From positions 1 to 64,000 of the IMG/VR virus record IMGVR_UViG_3300044740_000023: a stretch of DNA of 64,000 bases; one strand, given 5' to 3'. A program made the position numbers and the translations under genes. The notes beneath the pieces are model-generated. The model saw nothing but the letters and a program-made list of their open reading frames with translations, was not told the origin of the DNA and did no database searches. Each line of letters opens with the position of its first letter. Position 1 is the stretch's first letter. Positions 2,877 through 29,822 of this stretch are shown here, piece by piece. This DNA is from a virus (lineage: Duplodnaviria > Caudoviricetes).

Positions 2877-3218
2877 TCACAGCCACCCGCGCTCGCACGC
2901 CGTCAGGACGGCTTGCGCGCAGTTGTGGACGCCGAGCTTCGCGTACAGCGCGTGGCGATGCGAGCGCACGGTGGACTTCTGGATGCCGAGGCGCAGCGCG
3001 ATCTCCCCGACGCCGAGACCGCGCGCGAGCAGCGTCACGACCTGCCGCTGACGGCGCGTGAGCGGCGAGGGAAGCGGGCGGCACTCGCGCGCGTAGGCTT
3101 GAATCCTACGGCCCCATGCGCGCCACTCCTCAAGCTCGCGGCGGCGGGCGTATTCCCTGCGTTCCGGCTGCTTCGTCAGCGCCATTGCGACGAGCGCGCG
3201 CGTGCGCGGGCCGTCCAT
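2877..3218 (-). CDS. LuxR-family HTH regulator
   Basis: LTRRQRQVVTLLARGL..GEIA..L.I..STVRSH...LYAKLGV. Confidence 0.85.
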   Translation of the reverse strand: MDGPRTRALVAMALTKQPERREYARRRELEEWRAWGRRIQAYARECRPLPSPLTRRQRQVVTLLARGLGVGEIALRLGIQKSTVRSHRHALYAKLGVHNCAQAVLTACERGWL

Positions 3219-3402
3219 GCCGAGAACGTATGTTTCGAGCCGGACGTAGAACGGCGCGCCGTCAGCCCCCTGGCGCGCCGTTGTGGGCGGGGATGCGGGT
3301 TCACCTCAACCTGGACTGCCGCCCAACCGATCTTTCAGGTCGCTCCGCAGCCTAGCAAGGGCTTCTGATACGGTGCCGTGACCGCCCCGTCGTAAGAGGG
3401 CG

Positions 3403-3993: not shown

Positions 3994-4220
3994 ACTCGCA
4001 CTCGGGCCGTCCGGGGCACCCAAGCCAACTTCAGGCTCTCTCCTCCCCGGACGGCCCTGCGCGCGATTACGCCGAGGTCCAAGGTCGCTTCGTCGGGGGA
4101 ACGGGTGCCGAGGCGCAGCCCTTCGTGGAAGCGGTACGCGGCCTCGCTGCCGGGCATGAACCGGGCGAGCGGTTCGGGCAGTAACTCAGGCTGCGAGTGC
4201 GGTCGTCGCCAGAGCCTCAT
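3978..4220 (-). CDS. hypothetical protein
   Basis: ATGA overlap with upstream gene; last gene of cassette run. Confidence 0.5.
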   Translation of the reverse strand: MRLWRRPHSQPELLPEPLARFMPGSEAAYRFHEGLRLGTRSPDEATLDLGVIARRAVRGGESLKLAWVPRTARVRVYPMR

Positions 4221-4606
4221 ACGTCCGTCGCTTCTGCCACTTCCGAGACGGTGTCGCGGGCCTTCTGGCCCCCGTCGCTCTCAATGGCTGACTTGTCGGT
4301 GTCGGGCGTGGCGGTGTAGTTATCCTCATCTGCGTAGAAGCTCAGAGCCTCGCGATAGCGTCGCTTTGCCTCAACCTCGTTCATCGGTTCTCCTTTCGGT
4401 TCCCAAAGTCCCACCTGGTGTTGTCCTTCGTGAGTGCGAGCCCCAGGGTCGGCGTCAAATGCCGCTTCCATGTCAGGCCCTGAGCGCCAGCCGTCCGCGT
4501 AGCAGTTGTCACAGATGCCGGGTGAAGTGGTCATCGGGTTCTCAACGAGCGGCCCTTTGCAGACCGCGCAGCCGGATTCGTGCGGGCCATGCTTTCGCTC
4601 ACTCAC
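4217..4606 (-). CDS. cassette protein (CxxC pairs; internal start at 4384)
   Basis: starts MSERKH at degenerate junction repeat; internal SD AAGGAG before ATG at 4384. Confidence 0.65.
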   Translation of the reverse strand: MSERKHGPHESGCAVCKGPLVENPMTTSPGICDNCYADGWRSGPDMEAAFDADPGARTHEGQHQVGLWEPKGEPMNEVEAKRRYREALSFYADEDNYTATPDTDKSAIESDGGQKARDTVSEVAEATDV

Positions 4607-4818
4607 CAGCCGTGCTCCTTCGCGAGCTTCCTGCCGCGTGCGACGGCGCGCACTGTCTCCCACGGCAGCCACTCATCGGGCGGCGAAATCATGCCCAATC
4701 CTTCGAGGCTCATACCACGCGCCTCCACTTCCGCCTGCGTCATGCCCATCTTCTGCGCGCGCACTCGACCACGCGCTCGTAGGCGTGCACGCTGCAATCG
4801 TTCGTCTCGCTCACTCAC
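4603..4818 (-). CDS. cassette protein, 71 aa
   Basis: GTG start inside junction repeat (MSERDERL). Confidence 0.65.
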   Translation of the reverse strand: MSERDERLQRARLRARGRVRAQKMGMTQAEVEARGMSLEGLGMISPPDEWLPWETVRAVARGRKLAKEHGW

Positions 4819-5053
4819 GGCTCGACGCTCCCAACGAGGCAATGTCGTCGCCGTAGTAGTTGGGCGCGGGGCGGCGGGCGTCGTCGGCCAGCTTCCGGGC
4901 GATGAACCGCGCATCGCATCCGGGGCACCGCTCACTCGTCTGCGTGATCGGCTCGGTGTCGCGGCCCCACATCCACTCCGCACTCGTACCGCCGTAGCCG
5001 CACGCGCTGCATTGGCAGTTCCAGTCGCGAACGATCATCGTCGCCTCACTCAC
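4811..5053 (-). CDS. cassette protein with CxxC pairs, 80 aa
   Basis: MSEATM...CQCSACG...RCPGC; ends GASSRE in repeat. Confidence 0.65.
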   Translation of the reverse strand: MSEATMIVRDWNCQCSACGYGGTSAEWMWGRDTEPITQTSERCPGCDARFIARKLADDARRPAPNYYGDDIASLGASSRE

Positions 5054-5055
5054 GG

Positions 5056-5160
5056 CTAGGCTCCCGTCGTGATGTGCCGAGGCGCGGTGTAGAAGCGCAT
5101 CCCGTCCTCGACCTCGACTGACCACTCAACACGCTCATCACCATGCGCTCGCTCGCTCAT
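5056..5160 (-). CDS. cassette peptide, 34 aa
   Basis: MSERAHG...VEDGMRFYTAPRH; paralogous to part of 5823..6242. Confidence 0.5.
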   Translation of the reverse strand: MSERAHGDERVEWSVEVEDGMRFYTAPRHITTGA

Positions 5161-5366
5161 AAGCCCTTCGCGCTCCCATCGGTGGCCTCGGCGAGGGCGG
5201 CACGAGCGATGTCCTGCATTACGTCGGCCACTGAGTCGTATTCCCGGCCGATCGGCACCCTTCGTTCCGCAATCTTCGTCAGGGCTGTTTCGAACAACTC
5301 GCTGCGCCTTCTGATGCAGCAAGCGGAACATCCTGCGACCGGCTCTAGGCCTGCTCTCAGTTTCAT
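5157..5366 (-). CDS. cassette protein, 69 aa
   Basis: SD GGAGG, ATGA overlaps at both ends. Confidence 0.6.
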   Translation of the reverse strand: MKLRAGLEPVAGCSACCIRRRSELFETALTKIAERRVPIGREYDSVADVMQDIARAALAEATDGSAKGL

Positions 5367-5452
5367 AAGCGCAGCCCCCCCTCCTTGCGGTGGGTGATCC
5401 AGTAGACGAGGGCGAACGGCACCGCTGCCAAGTGGGTGATGACTCGTCTCAT
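5363..5452 (-). CDS. small hydrophobic peptide, 29 aa
   Basis: MRRVITHLAAVPFALVYWITH; ATGA overlaps. Confidence 0.45.
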   Translation of the reverse strand: MRRVITHLAAVPFALVYWITHRKEGGLRL

Positions 5453-5826
5453 GCAACGCTCCCCGTGCATCGCTCGCCCCTCGCGGGGCAGCCGGTGTCG
5501 TCGCACTCGGGTCCCTCGTCGTCGGGATTGAGCGGCCCACGGCACACCCAGCAGAGCCGCGGGTGTCCCAATGGCAGGCGCTTGACCCACTCGGGCGGCT
5601 CGCTCGCCTCGTAGGCTGGATCGAGCAGCGTGCCGCCATCACCGACGTAGCCGCAGGCGAGACAGCGGTGGATGCCGACACCTGGGAAGTGTCCACGCTC
5701 ATGCTCGGCACCGCAGTCGCAGCGCCAGCGACGAGGGGGGTAGCCTGCCGCAAGATCGGCGCGCTCCGACGCCTGCGCGTCAGCGTGAACCTCGCGGTCA
5801 ATGAGGGGATCGGGGTGATATCTCAC
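5449..5826 (-). CDS. Cys-rich cassette protein
   Basis: CDCG, CLACG, CWVC motifs; GTGA overlap. Confidence 0.65.
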   Translation of the reverse strand: MRYHPDPLIDREVHADAQASERADLAAGYPPRRWRCDCGAEHERGHFPGVGIHRCLACGYVGDGGTLLDPAYEASEPPEWVKRLPLGHPRLCWVCRGPLNPDDEGPECDDTGCPARGERCTGSVA

Positions 5827-6242
5827 TTGGCTGCCCCCCTTGACGATCTGAGCGAGGCAAGTCCGTCCTCGATGCGATGGCCGTTGACGCACTTGGCGCG
5901 GACCGGCTCGTTGAGGTGCATATCGGCCCTGACCAGCCTGGCACCGCACAACGCACACGAGCTACTCGACGCTCCGATGTATCGCGGCACCGTGTAGAGA
6001 CGCATACCGTCCTCGACTACGATCTCGACCTCCACGCGCTCGTCATCGCCAGATCGCTCAAGCCACACGTCCCACTCATCGAACGAGTTGTGCGTCTCGA
6101 CGCCACCATCAGCCCTGAGCGCCCAAGAGCCGCTGAATCGCACGCGAGAGAGGCCGAGAATGTCGGAGCGCGTGAGGCGGTCCACGATGATGATGTGCGG
6201 CTCGCCGTCCACATACACAACGCGCCTCCTTCGCTCACTCAC
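5823..6242 (-). CDS. cassette protein, 139 aa
   Basis: starts MSERRRR in repeat. Confidence 0.7.
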   Translation of the reverse strand: MSERRRRVVYVDGEPHIIIVDRLTRSDILGLSRVRFSGSWALRADGGVETHNSFDEWDVWLERSGDDERVEVEIVVEDGMRLYTVPRYIGASSSSCALCGARLVRADMHLNEPVRAKCVNGHRIEDGLASLRSSRGAAK

Positions 6243-6459
6243 GGCTCGACGCTCCCCGAGCCGCAGCGTCCAGTCGCGCGACTGCTGCTGGATTCGTGAT
6301 CCGTTCTATGTTGCCGATCCGATCCTCGCTGCCCTCAAAGCGGACGGCCCAGAAGGTCCAGTCACCTGCGCTACTGCGGGATAGCTCGACCACAATCCCG
6401 TCACCGATCAAGTCGTAGCACCCGACCTCCCCGCGCGCTTCCATCCGTAGCTCACTCAC
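6235..6459 (-). CDS. cassette protein, 74 aa
   Basis: MSELRM...GASSRE; bounded by repeats. Confidence 0.65.
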   Translation of the reverse strand: MSELRMEARGEVGCYDLIGDGIVVELSRSSAGDWTFWAVRFEGSEDRIGNIERITNPAAVARLDAAARGASSRE

Positions 6460-6742
6460 GGCTCGACGCTCCGACAGCGTGCCAGTCGGGTTCCCGACAG
6501 GTCGCATCGCGGTGACAGTCCCACTCGACCCAGCGGGAGCGACGGCGCATCCAGTAGCGGCGACCGCGCGTGACGGGATTGATCCACACTCGCTGAATCT
6601 CGAACAGGTCCGGCCATTTCCAGCGCGCCGCAAGCCGCTCCATCGCCGCCCGCGCTTCGGCGGGGCGCTTGAATCCCTTGGCGTGTACGCCCGCGCCGTT
6701 GCTCGTCACGACCTCATAGCTGTAGTTCCGGCGCTCACTCAC
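6452..6742 (-). CDS. cassette protein, 96 aa
   Basis: MSERRNY...GASSRE; bounded by repeats. Confidence 0.7.
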   Translation of the reverse strand: MSERRNYSYEVVTSNGAGVHAKGFKRPAEARAAMERLAARWKWPDLFEIQRVWINPVTRGRRYWMRRRSRWVEWDCHRDATCREPDWHAVGASSRE

Positions 6743-6939
6743 GGCTCGACGCTCCCGACTTCCTTGAGCGCGTCACGGGCCACGTTGCCCCGGTCGCTCT
6801 CAATTGCGGACCTGCCGGTCGTGTCGAGCTTGCCGGTCCAGTTGTCCTCGCTTGCGTAGAAGGTCAGGGCGAGTTCGAGGATGCGGAGCTTTTCTTCGGG
6901 GGTTTTGCCTTCGGCCATTTCTGCTTGCCTCGCTTTCAC
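6739..6939 (-). CDS. cassette protein, 66 aa
   Basis: ALTFYASEDN...SAIESD.G..ARD, paralog of 4217..4384; ends GSVEP. Confidence 0.65.
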   Translation of the reverse strand: MKARQAEMAEGKTPEEKLRILELALTFYASEDNWTGKLDTTGRSAIESDRGNVARDALKEVGSVEP

Positions 6940-6994
6940 GATTTCGCCTGCGGCGAAGGTCCGGTCACGGTCATTATCGGCCTCGGTCGCTCAC

Positions 6995-7573
6995 TCACGG
7001 CTCGACGCTCCGGGGGTCGTCCCTCACCCTCGCCGCTCCTGTTGGGGGGTGAGCCTGCGCTTGGCTTGGAAGGGCTTGGACTTGGGCGGCGACGGCCGCG
7101 ACCACCTCGCCTAGCCGCATACCGCCCTGCTCGATACCTAAGTGGGTCGCTGCCTCTCGGATTGCTTTCGCCTGCTTGCCGGTCAGGTCGTGAAAGCGCC
7201 CGAGTGCGTCCCGCTTGGCGGCGTCACGTTCCTCCGCGATGAACTCGATGCGGGCGTTGAGGGTGTCGCGCTCTTGCGTCACCTTCGCAAGAGCATCCAA
7301 GGCTGCGTACTCCTTATCGCTGATGCCCTCCCTCACCCTCGCCGCTCCTGTTGGGGGGTGAGCGATCCCCAGTGCTGTCGCCCTCCTAGAGAGAATGTGG
7401 TCGTAATCCGACATAGCTTTCGACTGTTCGCGGAGCCGATGCTGTTCGTCAAGCGGCAGGCCATAGAAGCCGTCGGAACCGATGAACAGGCTGAGCTTGA
7501 GCCGACGATCGCGCAGCTCAAGCAGCTCCTTACGCAGGCGCGTCTTGAAGTCGCTTTGACCCGGATGCGTCAT
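6995..7573 (-). CDS. two-module cassette protein (helical hairpin phage domain + coiled coil)
   Basis: EL..R..KL..F.....F..L...EQ..L..Q...M..Y..IL..R pattern; AHPPTGAARVR twice. Confidence 0.7.
   Translation of the reverse strand: MTHPGQSDFKTRLRKELLELRDRRLKLSLFIGSDGFYGLPLDEQHRLREQSKAMSDYDHILSRRATALGIAHPPTGAARVREGISDKEYAALDALAKVTQERDTLNARIEFIAEERDAAKRDALGRFHDLTGKQAKAIREAATHLGIEQGGMRLGEVVAAVAAQVQALPSQAQAHPPTGAARVRDDPRSVEP
7020..7363. repeat. 35-bp perfect direct repeat (7020-7054, 7329-7363)
   Basis: TCCCTCACCCTCGCCGCTCCTGTTGGGGGGTGAGC twice, 309 bp apart. Confidence 0.95.
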
Positions 7574-7893
7574 TGGTCTGCCTCCTTCGTGGACATTTCG
7601 CCCCTTCTCGTCGGGCCGGTTACGGGACAGACTGCGCAGTAGACAAGCCCTAACTCGGGGTGTCGGGCGCGATCGCCTTGCCGACAGTTGGAGCAGCCGA
7701 GCAGCAACGCGTTGAGCGGCACGCACGGTTCGCCGTTGGCCTTCTTCTCCGCTACGTACTCCCTCAAGCGGGTGCGGCGGCGTAGCTCGTGCTCGACGGT
7801 GATGTTGAAGTGGCGGGCGGCGACAGCCACGTTCTTCACGATTTCGTTTCGGCGCTTCGCGATTTCATGGCGGCGCTTCCTTCGCTCACTCAC
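7570..7893 (-). CDS. cassette protein, 107 aa
   Basis: MSERRKRR start in repeat; CSNC/CAVC. Confidence 0.65.
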   Translation of the reverse strand: MSERRKRRHEIAKRRNEIVKNVAVAARHFNITVEHELRRRTRLREYVAEKKANGEPCVPLNALLLGCSNCRQGDRARHPELGLVYCAVCPVTGPTRRGEMSTKEADQ

Positions 7894-8150
7894 GGCTCGA
7901 CGCTCCGGCGTAGAGCCTCACGCGCGATAGCCCGTATTCGGCCAATGTCAGCGTCGCTCGCCAGCCAGCGCCCGCTTTCGATTTCGCTCAGCGCCTCTCG
8001 ATAGCGCGCCTCTCTGCGCCAAGCCTGGTCGGTGAGAGCATCTACGACCCCCTGCGCGAGCGCGGGCGTGTCCATGACGCCGACGAGTTCGTCGTCTAAA
8101 TAGATCGTGCGCCCAACCTTGCGGCCCACGCGCCACCTTCGCTCACTCAC
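7890..8150 (-). CDS. cassette protein, 86 aa
   Basis: MSERRWRVGRKVGRTIY...RRSVEP; bounded by repeats. Confidence 0.7.
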   Translation of the reverse strand: MSERRWRVGRKVGRTIYLDDELVGVMDTPALAQGVVDALTDQAWRREARYREALSEIESGRWLASDADIGRIRAIAREALRRSVEP

Positions 8151-8392
8151 GGCTCGACGCTCCGGGGGGTGAGGGATTTCTGGAACGCGCGCAGACAGTC
8201 GATGATGCGTTCGTACTGCTCGATCAGGGCTTCGTGTTCCTCCTGCGACCCAACGAGCTTCAGGTCCCCTGCCGTCGCGTGGCCCCGCGCGATGTAGCTG
8301 ACCCACTTGCGGTGACTCTCGCGCATGGCGGCGGCATCTTTGATCGCCTGCGAAACGTCGTCCGCGCTCGGTTTCCACCTAGCGGCGCTCAT
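8147..8392 (-). CDS. cassette protein, 81 aa
   Basis: MSAARW...PRSVEP. Confidence 0.65.
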   Translation of the reverse strand: MSAARWKPSADDVSQAIKDAAAMRESHRKWVSYIARGHATAGDLKLVGSQEEHEALIEQYERIIDCLRAFQKSLTPRSVEP

Positions 8393-8691
8393 CCCTCGCT
8401 CCGGGGGTCGTCGGAGGGGGAGAGGGCGGCTTCGACGGACCCGACGGCGAACTCCACCGTGAACCGTTCTTCGTCGTCCTCGATGAAGCGGCTCACCTGA
8501 ATCCCGCCGCACGACAACGCGCCCTCTGGCTTGACCCGCTCCAACATTCCACGTGTCTGCGACGCGAGCATGGCAGCGTCGGGCACGCCTTCGTCGCGCC
8601 ACTCCCACTCGCCAGCGGCGTAGGCCGGTGCGAGCAGCCTGCCGACCTTCGCGGCCAGTTGGTCGAGGGCGAGGTCGTCTACATTCATCAC
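8389..8691 (-). CDS. hypothetical protein, 100 aa
   Basis: GTGA/ATGA overlaps; ends DDPRSEG. Confidence 0.65.
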   Translation of the reverse strand: MMNVDDLALDQLAAKVGRLLAPAYAAGEWEWRDEGVPDAAMLASQTRGMLERVKPEGALSCGGIQVSRFIEDDEERFTVEFAVGSVEAALSPSDDPRSEG

Positions 8692-9035
8692 TCGTACACG
8701 ATCTTGTAGCTCAGGTGCAGCATGTGCCCGATGATCTGATCGGCCACGTACTCGCGGTCGGACACGTCGGCCACGTCGAGCGCATCGAGCAGCGCCTCGC
8801 GCGCGAGCGCGGACTTGCCTCGGTCGGTCAGGTAGGTGCGGTGGTTGGACTCGCGCCGCAGCAGGCCGTCTTGTGTCAGCCGCTCGCGCATCCGTTCGTG
8901 CTCGCGGAGCGCCGACCAGTCGGAGTCGCGCACCGCTTCCAGCACGCGGCGGGCGACCGTGTTCATCCCGGCGTGCTCGGACATCCGCGTGCCATCAGAA
9001 CCGTGTTCTACCACGTTATGCACGCTCGCGCTCAA
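8688..9035 (-). CDS. hypothetical protein (possible winged helix; start uncertain)
   Basis: RL..DGLL......YLTDRG pattern. Confidence 0.5.
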   Translation of the reverse strand: MSASVHNVVEHGSDGTRMSEHAGMNTVARRVLEAVRDSDWSALREHERMRERLTQDGLLRRESNHRTYLTDRGKSALAREALLDALDVADVSDREYVADQIIGHMLHLSYKIVYE

Positions 9036-9103: not shown

Positions 9104-9143
9104 CAAGTCGGGGCGAGGGAGGTGAGCCGCTCGCCCCGACTTG
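9104..9143. terminator. 14-bp GC-rich hairpin (terminator or regulatory)
   Basis: CAAGTCGGGGCGAG / CTCGCCCCGACTTG, 12-nt loop; no U-tract. Confidence 0.45.
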
Positions 9144-9153
9144 CCCTCTCCTC

Positions 9154-9357
9154 CTACATCACGGCACGCAGCGGCACCCTTGTCAGCTTGCGGTGCAGCG
9201 CGCGCTCCTCGGACGGACCCTCGTCTACCTCGACCGCCGTCGCGAGGCGCTCCAAGAACTGCAAGCTGGCTACGGGACTCGTGAGGTGAGCGGTCCCGAT
9301 GCTCTCCTCCATGAGCATTCCGCCGTCGTGCTCTGAGCGTACTTCGACTACTGCCAT
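9154..9357 (-). CDS. hypothetical protein
   Basis: SD AGGAG before ATG. Confidence 0.5.
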   Translation of the reverse strand: MAVVEVRSEHDGGMLMEESIGTAHLTSPVASLQFLERLATAVEVDEGPSEERALHRKLTRVPLRAVM

Positions 9358-9534
9358 ACGTGGCTCCTGTTCGCATTCGCGGGCTTCCCTGAGAGCGTCG
9401 AGCAGGTCGCGAGCGAGAAACGCGCGGCTCTCAGGATCATTGCCCGAACGGTGGTCCTTCGGGCTTGTCAGTCTCTACCCCCAATCCGACCGACGCAAGA
9501 GCGACCTGTCAGATGATCCCGCACTTTCCGAGGA

Positions 9535-9852: not shown

Positions 9853-10067
9853 TGCCACGGGAACAGCCAGCGGTGGGCACGCTGAGCGAGGGCGTGCGCC
9901 TCCTCAGCGTGGCGCTTGGCGATGTCGAGTTCCCCGAGGTCCAGAGCCGCGCTCGCGCGCTCGTTCTCGATCTCGGCCAGCCGCATGTACTTGCGGGCGC
10001 GCAGGGTCGTCACGCGCAGCACGAGCGTCAGGACGGCGATGCCAATGGTGATGCCGGTCAGGATCAT
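9849..10067 (-). CDS. small membrane-anchored protein
   Basis: MILTGITIGIAVLTLVLRV N-terminal helix; ATGA overlap. Confidence 0.55.
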   Translation of the reverse strand: MILTGITIGIAVLTLVLRVTTLRARKYMRLAEIENERASAALDLGELDIAKRHAEEAHALAQRAHRWLFPWH

Positions 10068-10291
10068 CGCGCCGCCATCATCGCGCGGCACTCTTCCTCG
10101 ATCCGGCGCATGCAGTCCACGTTGAAGATCGTGCCCGCCTGCGGGAAGAAGCAGTATTGCCGCCACGCGCCGTACCAGCGAATCTGCCCAAGCTCGCCCG
10201 AGGAGCGCCGGTTGCGCACGCTGACGATGCGCGTCTTGCGCACGTCGGGCACCGCGCAGTCCTCGAAGAAGATGTAGTCGTCGGCGCTCAC
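10064..10291 (-). CDS. conserved phage hypothetical protein
   Basis: LGQIRWYGAWRQYCFFP motif; GTGA overlap. Confidence 0.7.
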   Translation of the reverse strand: MSADDYIFFEDCAVPDVRKTRIVSVRNRRSSGELGQIRWYGAWRQYCFFPQAGTIFNVDCMRRIEEECRAMMAAR

Positions 10292-10602
10292 GCGAAGGCG
10301 TCGGCGGCAGGGCCGAGGACGGAGCGCAGGAAGCAGCGCCGGTGAATGTAGACGTAGCTGATCGTCACCTCGATGCCGGTCGAGGTGCGGCCCGAGGAGG
10401 ACAGAATCTCGCTGACGACGCTCTCCGGGGTCACGTCGGGCATGCGGAAGCCCTGGTCGCCGTCCTCGATCTCGTTCTGGCACCACCAGCACGTCTTGCC
10501 GACCGGCGTGTCCACCTTGTCGGCGTGCCAGTAGATCGGCGCTTCGAGCTTGTCTCCGAAGTAGTCCATGAAGTTGAGCGCCCCGGCATGGAGCGAAGCC
10601 AT
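10288..10602 (-). CDS. hypothetical protein (CWWC...HRRC)
   Basis: ORF in run of coupled genes; start may be 10569. Confidence 0.6.
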   Translation of the reverse strand: MASLHAGALNFMDYFGDKLEAPIYWHADKVDTPVGKTCWWCQNEIEDGDQGFRMPDVTPESVVSEILSSSGRTSTGIEVTISYVYIHRRCFLRSVLGPAADAFA

Positions 10603-10663
10603 TACCGCCGAGGCGCGACGTAGTTATACACTCCCCGGCGCAAATCAACCGAAAGGACGCAGG

Positions 10664-11116
10664 ATGCGTGTAGTAGGACTGACCGTAGCCCTGGTGTTGG
10701 GGTGCTGTTCGCCCGCGTGGGCGGGGCATAGTGGCGGCATCCCCGGCAACAAGGTCGGGGGAGGCGATGCGGGGTGTACGGGCAACCCGCACGACTTCGG
10801 GCAGCCGACAGGCAACCCCCACGACTTCTCGGAGGGTCGGCCTACGGGCAACCCGCACGAGTGCGCGGAAGTGCGTGAAGAAGGACGGTGCGGCTGCCAT
10901 CCGTGTCCGCCGCCACCGCCGCCGCCGCCCGTGTGCCCGCCACCGACTCCGGTGCCGTGTCCGTGCTCGACGGTGACGAACGTGACCAACATCACCAACG
11001 TCACGAACATCACGAACGTCGTCGCGCCTAAGCCGCACAAGAAGCACCACAAGAAGAAGCACAAGCGGGTGCGCCATTTCCACCCGCACCCGAACCCGCG
11101 CATCTTCGCGGGCTGA
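10664..11116 (+). CDS. secreted low-complexity repeat protein
   Basis: SD GAAAGGA, signal peptide ending AWA, TGNPHD x3, poly-Pro, TNV/TNI repeats, Lys/His tail. Confidence 0.7.
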   Translation: MRVVGLTVALVLGCCSPAWAGHSGGIPGNKVGGGDAGCTGNPHDFGQPTGNPHDFSEGRPTGNPHECAEVREEGRCGCHPCPPPPPPPPVCPPPTPVPCPCSTVTNVTNITNVTNITNVVAPKPHKKHHKKKHKRVRHFHPHPNPRIFAG

Positions 11117-24537: not shown

Positions 24538-25590
24538 ATGACCAGTACGTTCGCGGACATCGAGCGGTCGCTACGACAGCCGCCGCCGATGTCCGAAGCA
24601 CCTACGCTCGCGCCGCTCAATCTGGATGAGCGCAGCGGCAACGAGCTTCGCCCGGCGACCTTCGATGAGATGGTCGGGCAGACACGACTCAAGTCGCTTC
24701 TACAGCGCGTGGTCTCGGTCGCCAAGACGACCGGCAAACCGCTCGACCACATGCTGCTTGTCGGCAGCGCTGGCACCGGCAAGACCACCTTCGCGCTCGT
24801 GATCGCGCATGAACTCGGGACGCGCGTGTTCATGCTCAAAGCGCCCGTCGCGTTCAACATGTTCGAGGCGCTGGCGCAGGCGGCGCGACCCGGCGACGTG
24901 TGCGTGATCGACGAGATTCATCTCCAATGTTCTGGTGATCGTCGCGGACTCACCCAAGCTGCGGACCCCGAGGTTTTCTACCACGTCCTTGAGGACAAGC
25001 GACTCATGGCCGAGAGCACGATGATCCCATTCCCCGACGTGACCTTCATCGGCTGCACAACTGACGCCGGACTCCTGCCAGAGCCGTTTCTGGACAGGTT
25101 CCCGCTCCAGCCGCAGCTTGACGAGTACACCGACGAGGAGATGGCGGTGCTGGCGAAGGCGAATGCCCGCTGGCTCGACATGCAGATCGACGACAGCGCG
25201 GCGCTGGTGTTCGCGCGCGCGAGTAGAGATGTGCCACGGCAGATCAACACCTACGTCCGCAACGCCCGGTCGCTCAACGTCGGCAGCATCGACGAGTGGG
25301 TGGCGAAGGAGATCGTCTGCTCGCTGAACAGCACGACTCTCGACGGGCTAACACGGGACATGCAGTTGATGTTGAAGTTCCTGCTGGCGTGCCGACGCGA
25401 AGATGCGAAAGGCAACGTCCGCTACCAGAGCGGTGTGAACAGCATCGCTACGGCGCTCGGCAAGTCGCGCGACTCGAAGGCGGTCGCGCTCTACGTCGAG
25501 CCGTATCTCATCAAGGCGGGCTACGTCATCGTCACGCACGGTGGCCGCGCGCTCACGGACAGAGGCAGAGAAAGGGCAGAACAGCTATGA
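24538..25590 (+). CDS. ruvB: RuvB-like Holliday junction branch-migration ATPase
   Basis: LRP..FDEMVGQ, LDHMLL.GSAGTGKTT, IDEIH, IG.TT..G.L..P..DRF, PR, LDGL, EPYLI..G....T..GR. Confidence 0.88.
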   Translation: MTSTFADIERSLRQPPPMSEAPTLAPLNLDERSGNELRPATFDEMVGQTRLKSLLQRVVSVAKTTGKPLDHMLLVGSAGTGKTTFALVIAHELGTRVFMLKAPVAFNMFEALAQAARPGDVCVIDEIHLQCSGDRRGLTQAADPEVFYHVLEDKRLMAESTMIPFPDVTFIGCTTDAGLLPEPFLDRFPLQPQLDEYTDEEMAVLAKANARWLDMQIDDSAALVFARASRDVPRQINTYVRNARSLNVGSIDEWVAKEIVCSLNSTTLDGLTRDMQLMLKFLLACRREDAKGNVRYQSGVNSIATALGKSRDSKAVALYVEPYLIKAGYVIVTHGGRALTDRGRERAEQL

Positions 25591-28769: not shown

Positions 28770-28805
28770 CGTGTGCGGGGCGTGACCAAGAGCGCCCCGC
28801 ACACG
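28770..28805. terminator. 13-bp hairpin directly upstream of recombinase RBS
   Basis: CGTGTGCGGGGCG / CGCCCCGCACACG. Confidence 0.5.
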
Positions 28806-28817
28806 CGAAAGGATGGC

Positions 28818-29822
28818 ATGGACAACGGCAGCCTAATGGCGCGTTTCGAGCAAGAGCACATCGACCGACACAGCATCAGCAGTCAGCGGCGTCGCGTGAC
28901 GCTGCAAACCCTCAAAGGACTGGCCGAGCGACTGGAAGGTCGCACGCTCGCAGAGCTAACGCCGTCCGACATCATGGCTTGGCAGGCCGCAGAGTTGAAG
29001 CGCGGTCTCGCACCCAACACGCTGCGCAACCGCGAAAGCATGGTGCGCGCGTTCCTGACTTGGGCACTCCAGGCTGGCGTCATCACGTTCGAGCAGTCAG
29101 CACGACTCAAGTCGGTTCAACCGGCGCGGGGAACGCGCGTCAAAAAACCGCCGAAGCCCTACAAGCGCACCGAGGTCATTCGCCTGCGCGAGCAGATCGC
29201 GGAGAAGTACCCGGTCGCGCCCGTGAGGGGCCGTGGCTCGCTCGTCGTGCGCCGCTGGCTGGAAGGGCGCGCGAAGTACAGCGCCGTCGTGAAGCGTCAC
29301 GCGCGGCGGCTCCAGCTTGAGGCGCAGGTATCGCTCGCGCTGGAGGAGGGGCTGCGCTTGCACGAGATACACCACCTGACGCTCGACGGGCTGTCGCCCG
29401 AGAACGCGGCTGTAGTTGTGCAGACGGCGAAGCAGAAGCCCGGCGAGGTCCGGTATCGGGAAGTGCCGTGGACTGCCCACTCGCGCGCGCGCGTGAAAGA
29501 GTGGCTGGAGTTCCGGCGTCAGCTACCCGTCAAGCACGCCTCGCCGTGGCTCGCGCTCACGTCGGCAGACCCGCTCGCACCGCAGAGCTATGAATGGCTG
29601 CGCAAGTGCTTGCGTCCGTATTGCTGGCACCGGCTGCGTCACACCTTCGCTACGGAGCGCCTGCGCGCGGGCATGACGCTGGAGAAGGTGCAGGTGATGA
29701 TGGGCCACGCACACCTTGAGCAGACGCTCGCCTACACGGAGATCGTCGGCTCCGATGTCACAACTCAAGCTGAGCGGTCAGAGAGCGAGTTCGCTCGCCT
29801 GATCGGACTGGAGGCAGCATGA
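28818..29822 (+). CDS. tyrosine recombinase/integrase
   Basis: GLRLHE (R), AKQK (K), HRLRH, MGH, TLAY catalytic set; N-terminal SAM-like domain. Confidence 0.9.
   Translation: MDNGSLMARFEQEHIDRHSISSQRRRVTLQTLKGLAERLEGRTLAELTPSDIMAWQAAELKRGLAPNTLRNRESMVRAFLTWALQAGVITFEQSARLKSVQPARGTRVKKPPKPYKRTEVIRLREQIAEKYPVAPVRGRGSLVVRRWLEGRAKYSAVVKRHARRLQLEAQVSLALEEGLRLHEIHHLTLDGLSPENAAVVVQTAKQKPGEVRYREVPWTAHSRARVKEWLEFRRQLPVKHASPWLALTSADPLAPQSYEWLRKCLRPYCWHRLRHTFATERLRAGMTLEKVQVMMGHAHLEQTLAYTEIVGSDVTTQAERSESEFARLIGLEAA

Follow-up and report, generated by a model that had tools for sequence, protein, structure and literature searches.

A 25-nt stop/start junction repeated between the small genes of a phage operon from soil metagenomes

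Organization of the locus

The DNA analyzed here, referred to as the window, is the first 64 kb (64,000 nt) of the 85,805-nt virus record IMGVR_UViG_3300044740_000023 of IMG/VR (Duplodnaviria; Caudoviricetes), whose completeness is given as 98%. The subject of this study is a 25-nt sequence, GGAGCGTCGAGCCGTGAGTGAGCGA (the 25-mer), which recurs as a junction between small genes in the first 9 kb of the window. The runs that contain this phage are soil metagenomes from one soil sample, and its G+C content is approximately 65%. The record is classed as "linear"; an 18-nt direct repeat is common to both of its ends (1-20 and 85788-85805), and the assembly is therefore probably circularly closed and the genome complete.

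Approximately 18 small minus-strand genes, labeled up and A to Q, form a chain from position 8984 to 3978, with the operon at 4217-8984 carrying every copy of the junction. The gene set of the phage includes a DnaB-type helicase, an ATP-dependent ligase, a RuvB-like ATPase, a MoxR/VWA pair, a PD-(D/E)XK nuclease and a tyrosine integrase, and helix-turn-helix (HTH)/LuxR-type regulators are also encoded. The tyrosine recombinase gene (28773-29822) was the only one found; it lies 20 kb from the array, and its product has an ordinary integrase domain pair.

Architecture of the canonical junctions

The 25-mer was found in five exact copies and two copies with one mismatch, hereafter the canonical copies. 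All of them lie between 4807 and 8163 on the minus strand; shuffled sequences gave an expectation of 0 copies. Each of the seven lies at a boundary between open reading frames (ORFs). These results reproduced the copy number and placement of the original prediction, which had been made from the sequence letters and a list of ORFs, and the irregular spacing of about 220 to 1400 bp that it had described also held, with start-to-start distances between canonical copies of 1424, 217, 283, 256, 895 and 257 nt. No further copies with three or fewer mismatches were present in the whole 85,805-nt record, in which the 25-mer is the most prominent non-trivial repeat. The conservation has sharp edges; the majority-base fraction reached 0.99 within the motif and dropped to background on either side, with 0.47 over the 25 nt upstream and 0.55 over the 25 nt downstream. 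Additionally, contigs from a second run of the same sample matched the arrangement over three copies with 100% identity, so the array is not an assembly artefact.

In every canonical copy, the sequence GGAG is followed by a 9-nt spacer and a GTG start codon. Within GTGAGTGA, one TGA overlaps the GTG and a second TGA follows 4 nt later, and both of the non-start frames are closed in this way. The first stop is used by the upstream genes B, C, E and F, which end in RSVEP or GSVEP, and the second by the upstream genes G, H and N, which end in GASSRE. The same bases are thus translated in two frames in different genes, which indicates that the conservation operates at the nucleotide level and not at the protein level. 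The frame reading of all seven copies bore out the earlier view that one element supplies a Shine-Dalgarno (SD) sequence, a start and stops in two frames. None of the canonical copies is entered in the third frame, described earlier as reading through; in-frame read-through occurs in variants inside genes E and I, as described below.

The junctions B>C (8139-8163) and C>D (7882-7906) are exact copies on the minus strand, as are all those that follow; the upstream tails at both are RSVEP, and genes C and D start with MSER, gene C from GTG. The exact copy after gene E (6987-7011) ends that gene with RSVEP, and its GTG opens only a 20-codon leader ORF (6998-6936). At F>G (6731-6755), where the last base is mismatched, the tail of F is GSVEP and gene G starts with MSER; at G>H (6448-6472), where position 24 is mismatched, the tail of G is GASSRE and gene H starts with MSEL. 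The two remaining exact copies, at H>I (6231-6255) and N>O (4807-4831), both end the upstream gene with GASSRE; gene O starts with MSER, and gene I starts either with MSER or eight codons later, at an in-frame GTG (codon 9). The junction GTG thus opens a downstream gene at six of the copies (MSER or MSEL), the exception being 6987-7011. It is plausible from the sequence that the junction GTG is the start codon that is used.

Around the junction no conserved RNA fold was found, as would suit a ribosome site that is accessible; the pairing partners of the motif differed from copy to copy. The 25-mer itself contained no dyad symmetry and no hairpin. A putative upstream "anti-junction" at 9386-9425, which could pair with all copies, was rejected; it was the top partner at -38.9 kcal/mol, with the next site at -38.7 kcal/mol, and as it was not an outlier the pairing was attributed to chance.

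Degenerate and variant junctions

Approximately eight degenerate copies were identified: five at gene starts (B, K, M, N and P) and three in-frame read-throughs, two in E and one in I. The original prediction had counted about five. Searching the genome with a loosened pattern (GGAGCG, 3-12 nt, then ATGAG or GTGAG) gave 13 matches, all on the minus strand, and 12 of these lay between 4831 and 8402. The thirteenth, at 85612, falls within an HTH gene and was rejected as a chance match.

At the degenerate junction A>B (8386-8402, minus strand, as for the others), GGAGCG is followed after 4 nt by an ATGA stop-start overlap, and 16 nt of upstream flank are common with the copy at 7011. The J>K junction (5443-5462) has the same arrangement of GGAGCG, 4 nt and an ATGA overlap. 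The L>M junction (5149-5176) provides an ATG start and the residues MSER, and M>N (5041-5065) has a TAG stop and a GTG start giving MSEA, with a second in-frame ATG 5 codons on. At O>P (4595-4618), the 5' half has diverged and the 3' half, GTGAGTGAGCGA, is intact and encodes MSER.

The read-through variants are found inside genes. Two perfect copies of a 35-nt repeat, 309 nt (103 codons) apart, bracket an in-frame module, E2, of gene E. This repeat is a variant of the junction that is one base shorter, and the stops are therefore lost and the frame is read through. The first copy (7329-7363, minus strand) encodes AHPPTGAARVR and lies at the end of the crAss001_48-like domain of E, and the second (7020-7054, minus strand) immediately precedes the canonical copy at 6987-7011. 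In gene I, a decayed junction (5952-5975, minus strand) has lost both stops, and read-through fuses the I1 part, from the first half of I, to a zinc-ribbon-like tail.

Cassettes and their homologues

The genes between the junctions (the cassettes) were each scored across frames with a codon model trained on the long genes of the phage. Every cassette scored best in its own frame, with the exception of the 20-codon leader. Only two pairs of cassettes were related: F matches the C-terminal half of P (57%, 3e-11), and M matches the end of I1 (64%, 1e-9). Most cassettes are unrelated to one another, as the original prediction described the spacers. M, with 34 amino acids (aa), appears to be a truncated paralogue of the I1 end and adjoins a junction variant. 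The nucleotide similarity between F and P ends at the 5' edge of the junction.

Comparison of the cassettes with Pfam and PHROGs gave a single match, a crAss001_48-like domain of unknown function at residues 7-70 of E. In the PHROG profiles this domain is C-terminal, and it ends where E runs on into the 35-nt variant. Cys pairs suggest small zinc ribbons in several cassettes. The proposal that the cassettes serve anti-defence or host takeover found no support; they are orphans or belong to families of unknown function, with no evidence for or against such roles.

An exhaustive HMMER search at E<=1e-3 placed cassette G in a family of at least 34 cluster representatives (35 counting G itself). 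The core of the alignment extends from the residue after MSERR to a PDW motif just before GASSRE, and the ends of the homologues are unrelated. Five contigs encoding G homologues were GC-rich and contained phage-like arrays of other, unrelated small genes, and the junction was absent from all five. The family of G (6452-6742, minus strand) is uncharacterised, with members of approximately 90-105 aa and invariant Y, VV, NG, E, W, R and P, and its members come from phage-like, GC-rich contigs and in every case have small early-type genes as neighbors. A 28-kb Logan contig (L116) encodes the closest G homologue; in it, three consecutive small genes (10001-10510, plus strand) share CGTACAGAGC, a 10-12-nt string within the first 8 codons of each, possibly a further start-proximal repeat, in a different phage.

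Low-GC prophages contain the FYADEDNY module found in F and P, and in these prophages it ends a few residues past the point that corresponds to the start of the junction in F. The combination of a zinc ribbon and FYADEDNY in P (4217-4606, minus strand) recurs in low-GC prophage proteins (L040/L041), which makes P a natural two-domain protein and F a short paralogue with a single module. Because the homologues of G, F/P and E1 in other phages lack junction-coded ends, the junction can be regarded as a portable adaptor on pre-existing genes.

Occurrence of the junction in other genomes

In database searches for the 25-mer, as the original prediction had proposed, the exact 24-mer was absent from IMG/VR, and a search with the 16-mer core gave five matches. 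The 20-mer core gave three hits in the JGI metagenomes and one in the GTDB genomes; these were single-copy hits with no flanking similarity and were judged to be chance. A pattern of GGAG, 9 nt and the core gave 63 single-copy matches in IMG/VR, among which only one was notable. This match, in a 46-kb viral contig with 61% G+C (L099), is a 23/25 copy that includes all seven bases of the spacer core and lies exactly at a gene boundary; the upstream gene reads MSER...GDSSRE and then stops, and the downstream gene starts with VSER. The contig shares no protein with the phage studied here. The copy (region 10185-11022, plus strand) is 660 nt from the contig end, so that any array at that place would go unseen, and the remainder of the L099 array has plain ATGA/GTGA overlaps. 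The L099 copy is no more than a hint that phages share the linker.

Signs of rearrangement

The flanks of the junctions were compared. A 5' extension, CCCCC, is common to the junctions B>C, E>leader and A>B, and a 3' extension, AAGG.GGCGCG, is common to B>C and H>I and partly to C>D. All four of the possible left-right flank combinations are present, as expected from crossovers inside the repeat. The bracketed module in E, the decayed junction in I, the truncated M and these mosaic flanks fit crossovers within or at the repeat, as indirect evidence.

Searches for related phages were made at several levels. A megablast comparison with GenBank phages gave no match, and tblastn with the DnaB protein against phages gave identities of at most 27%, which places this phage at a distance from all cultured phages. 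No DnaB-related loci were found. A search for related loci with a 341-aa ORF returned only a widespread 75-aa domain, whose loci were without junction-like repeats, and protein searches with cassettes I and E returned only the queries themselves. In the contigs of the source runs, the joints listed had sides of 21-24 nt at a likeness threshold of 88, and none was on a junction copy; contigs were interrupted where the 30- and 35-nt repeats lie, as a k-mer graph would lead one to expect. Cassette swapping at the junction is plausible and unproven.

Neighboring features

A hairpin with a perfect 14-bp stem (9110-9150, minus strand), read directly from the sequence, directly follows a gene ending at 9154. 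It is likely a terminator that splits the transcription unit of the array from the upstream genes. Its stem includes a near-copy of the palindrome GACTCAAGTC. No promoter-like sites were found between 2000 and 12500.

A gene for a LuxR/GerE-type regulator (2877-3305, minus strand) adjoins the array. A relative at 79% identity was found in Logan contigs of 71% G+C (L114/L115), where its neighbors are wholly different, and the regulator gene is therefore itself mobile. Two other short repeats were noted. A palindrome-centered 12-mer, CGACTCAAGTCG, occurs five or six times in the genome (window positions 24685, 29103, 55145 and 60569; genome positions 67604 and 71817), and an AT-rich 12-mer, CGTATATTAGGC, occurs four times on the minus strand (60537; genome positions 70946, 71803 and 73915). 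These are candidate operator and late-promoter motifs and are unconnected with the junction.

Comparison with known systems

To understand whether the 25-mer belongs to a described class of element, we compared it with four types of phage repeat and with integrons. The start-associated sequences (SAS), together with their extended form (ESAS), in cluster K mycobacteriophages (Pope et al. 2011, PMC3203893; Front Microbiol 2025, PMC12699233), whose function is still unproven, were generally similar. Both SAS and the 25-mer are short, asymmetric repeats that occur in many copies and one orientation at small non-structural genes of unrelated families; both occupy the ribosome-binding position with a GGAG-type core and contain extra invariant bases beyond those that pair with rRNA, and the upstream stop sometimes overlaps the SAS. 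In the phage studied here, a 9-nt spacer separates GGAG from GTG in all seven canonical copies, so that the position and the SD core agree with SAS. The differences include the length, 25 nt here compared with 13 in SAS, and the sequence, which differs from the SAS consensus GGGATAGGAGCCC (up to 2 deviations). In addition, the 25-mer includes the GTG start, the first three codons and the two-frame stops; the distance to the start is 9 nt, in contrast to 3-7 nt in SAS, and the start is GTG, whereas SAS genes mostly use ATG. Unlike SAS, the 25-mer is limited to one 3.6-kb operon and is without an ESAS-like inverted repeat.

In the modular theory of phage evolution, for which PMC3029335 gives a summary (its references 21 and 22), boundary ("linker") sequences are short, identical stretches between unrelated modules and were proposed to permit functional gene exchange by homologous recombination; the 25-mer likewise lies at the boundaries between unrelated genes. 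Those sequences, however, owe their definition to comparisons between related phages at mosaic joints, whereas here many copies occur within one genome, and the built-in start and two-frame stop are more elaborate than PMC3029335 describes. The promoter-early stem-loop (PeSL) cassettes of T4-type phages (Arbiol et al. 2010, PMC2839356; Comeau et al. 2014, PMC4122927) are also comparable, as a repeated regulatory element there separates small orphan genes of a plastic genome region, beginning at the upstream stop and reaching as far as the downstream SD and start. Recombination between PeSL copies shuffles genes and yields mini-circles (PMC2839356, PMC4122927); no such recombination was observed here. 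A PeSL has a sigma-70 promoter and a terminator hairpin, whereas neither a promoter-like site nor a conserved hairpin was found at the junctions; the 25-mer is too short for two hexamers at 16-18-nt spacing, and it acts within one polycistronic message.

The stoperators of cluster A mycobacteriophages, mentioned in PMC3203893, resemble the 25-mer as asymmetric repeats at stop/start positions oriented with transcription. They differ in being 13 bp long, genome-wide and matched to the early-promoter operator, whereas all copies here are in one operon (4595-8402). Integrons have attC sites with hairpin inverted repeats and an adjacent integron-type integrase with attI and a promoter; neither was found here. 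By analogy, the 25-mer would work like the boundary/linker sequences and PeSLs and appears most similar to a longer, start-spanning SAS. By sequence or defining parts, it belongs to none of these three families. These close precedents indicate that the original prediction overstated how unusual the element is.

Interpretation and alternative explanations

We consider that the 25-mer is best explained as a translational-coupling linker that was spread and kept uniform by recombination and thereby supplies the breakpoints of cassettes, and we give this reading a probability of approximately 0.5. On this reading, the linker is portable and intercistronic and lies in the early, leftward accessory-gene operon of an uncultivated, temperate soil phage. 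The anatomy of the junction, its conservation as nucleotides and its adaptor relation to pre-existing families are what was observed; translational coupling and all of the recombination are what we infer. At the RNA level, the linker would end the upstream cistron and restart translation, and a ribosome in either non-start frame would terminate on the start codon or 4 nt past it and could then re-initiate. At the DNA level, the copies would serve as direct repeats, with 25-30 identical bases between unrelated genes, and as such would be ready substrates for homologous recombination, gene conversion and copy-choice slippage. Such recombination would have spread the sequence through the array and held the copies identical, and cassettes could be inserted, duplicated, truncated or lost by the same route.

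Several observations weigh against this reading. Twenty-five bases are at the low end for efficient homologous recombination in Red/RecET-type systems. As an agent, an exonuclease paired with a single-strand annealing protein (SSAP) had been proposed; the PD-(D/E)XK nuclease is present, and no SSAP family was recognised near it among the genes tested. No credible junction-to-junction joints were found in the contigs of the source runs, in which minority variants are invisible, and no close relatives were found in IMG/VR, the JGI metagenomes, the GTDB genomes, GenBank phages or the protein collection. The L099 copy has an estimated chance probability of approximately 0.004-0.1 among the 63 pattern matches. 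With regard to translation, the leader ORF at 6998-6936 is without coding signal and stops 17 nt before the separate ATG of F, and at H>I a stronger AAGGAGG precedes the in-frame GTG at codon 9 of gene I; the public gene call agrees on E and places the start of I eight codons further in. A second in-frame start a few codons downstream is possibly present at G>H (gene H) and at the degenerate M>N (gene N). Finally, the perfect identity of the copies could equally be attributed to a sequence-specific binding factor.

This last point leads to a start-associated regulatory site, at which a phage or host factor, either a protein or a small RNA, would bind the 25-mer on mRNA or DNA and turn translation of the early genes on or off as a set, with recombination incidental. 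We regard this as a possible but unlikely explanation. RegA of phage T4 provides an analogue, as does the role proposed for cluster K SAS. The 25-mer is asymmetric, has one orientation, overlaps the ribosome site and the start and is limited to small non-structural genes, as in SAS (PMC3203893), and it contains invariant bases without an obvious role in rRNA pairing; furthermore, close direct repeats should be prone to deletion, and that they are retained suggests a function. However, approximately eight neighboring junctions of this operon have decayed, and the genes that they connect are nonetheless intact and codon-biased, so the exact sequence is not needed for expression, and we found no conserved RNA structure and no candidate binding factor, while the best complementary partner in the genome (9386-9425) was not an outlier. 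A somewhat more doubtful explanation is that the copies are relics of local duplication or slippage, homogenised by gene conversion, that provide an ordinary SD and start and were never exchanged between phages. Local duplication is evident in the paralogue pairs F/P and I/M and in the module bracketed by the 35-nt repeat, and the absence of the exact 24-mer from IMG/VR, with only single-copy chance matches to the 20-nt core in the JGI metagenomes and GTDB genomes, agrees with a local origin. Most cassettes are nevertheless mutually unrelated; at least G, F/P and E1 belong to families of unrelated phages and were therefore acquired separately rather than duplicated, and the 23/25 copy has the same role in an unrelated contig.

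Explanations based on DNA-binding proteins or site-specific recombination fared less well. Stoperator-like sites, at which a repressor would block transcription through the accessory operon in lysogens, appear improbable. The asymmetric sites at stop/start positions are all oriented with transcription, and an integrase and HTH/LuxR-type regulators are present; in contrast, all copies lie within 3.6 kb of one operon, with none at the divergent control region at 14.3-14.5 kb or elsewhere. That region uses other repeats, and in this genome a different palindrome that is dispersed, GACTCAAGTC, makes a better candidate for a stoperator; unlike known operators, the 25 bases have no symmetry and span a start codon. 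Integron-like capture of cassettes by the phage tyrosine recombinase, with the 25-mer as the recombination site, is very improbable, even though promoterless small ORFs in one orientation with one repeat copy each would suit it and such a recombinase (28773-29822) is encoded. The motif has no attC-like inverted repeat or hairpin and no core-type dyad, the recombinase is 20 kb distant with an ordinary integrase domain pair, and no attI-like or promoter platform adjoins the array; the suggestion that this enzyme is the agent of rearrangement is accordingly unsupported.

Returning to the translational-coupling linker, we also considered a broader form of it, in which the 25-mer would be the self-propagating adaptor of a recombinase-independent cassette system. 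Any ORF with one copy could then be placed between two others through the general recombination of the phage and would be ended, restarted and expressed in any frame, and soil phages would share linkers as an exchange currency. We offer this extension tentatively and think it unlikely.

Biological implications

It is only partly understood how phages acquire and shed small accessory genes while keeping their operons intact, and conserved boundary sequences were proposed decades ago and have rarely been seen. The array described here is a clean natural case in which a linker overcomes the frame problem by placing stops in two frames and a start in the remaining one, on genes that are found elsewhere without the linker. 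If exchange at the linker were demonstrated, the element would offer GC-rich hosts a compact part of natural origin with which to build coupled polycistronic constructs, and it would represent a simple, recombinase-free mechanism for the modular shuffling of phage genes.

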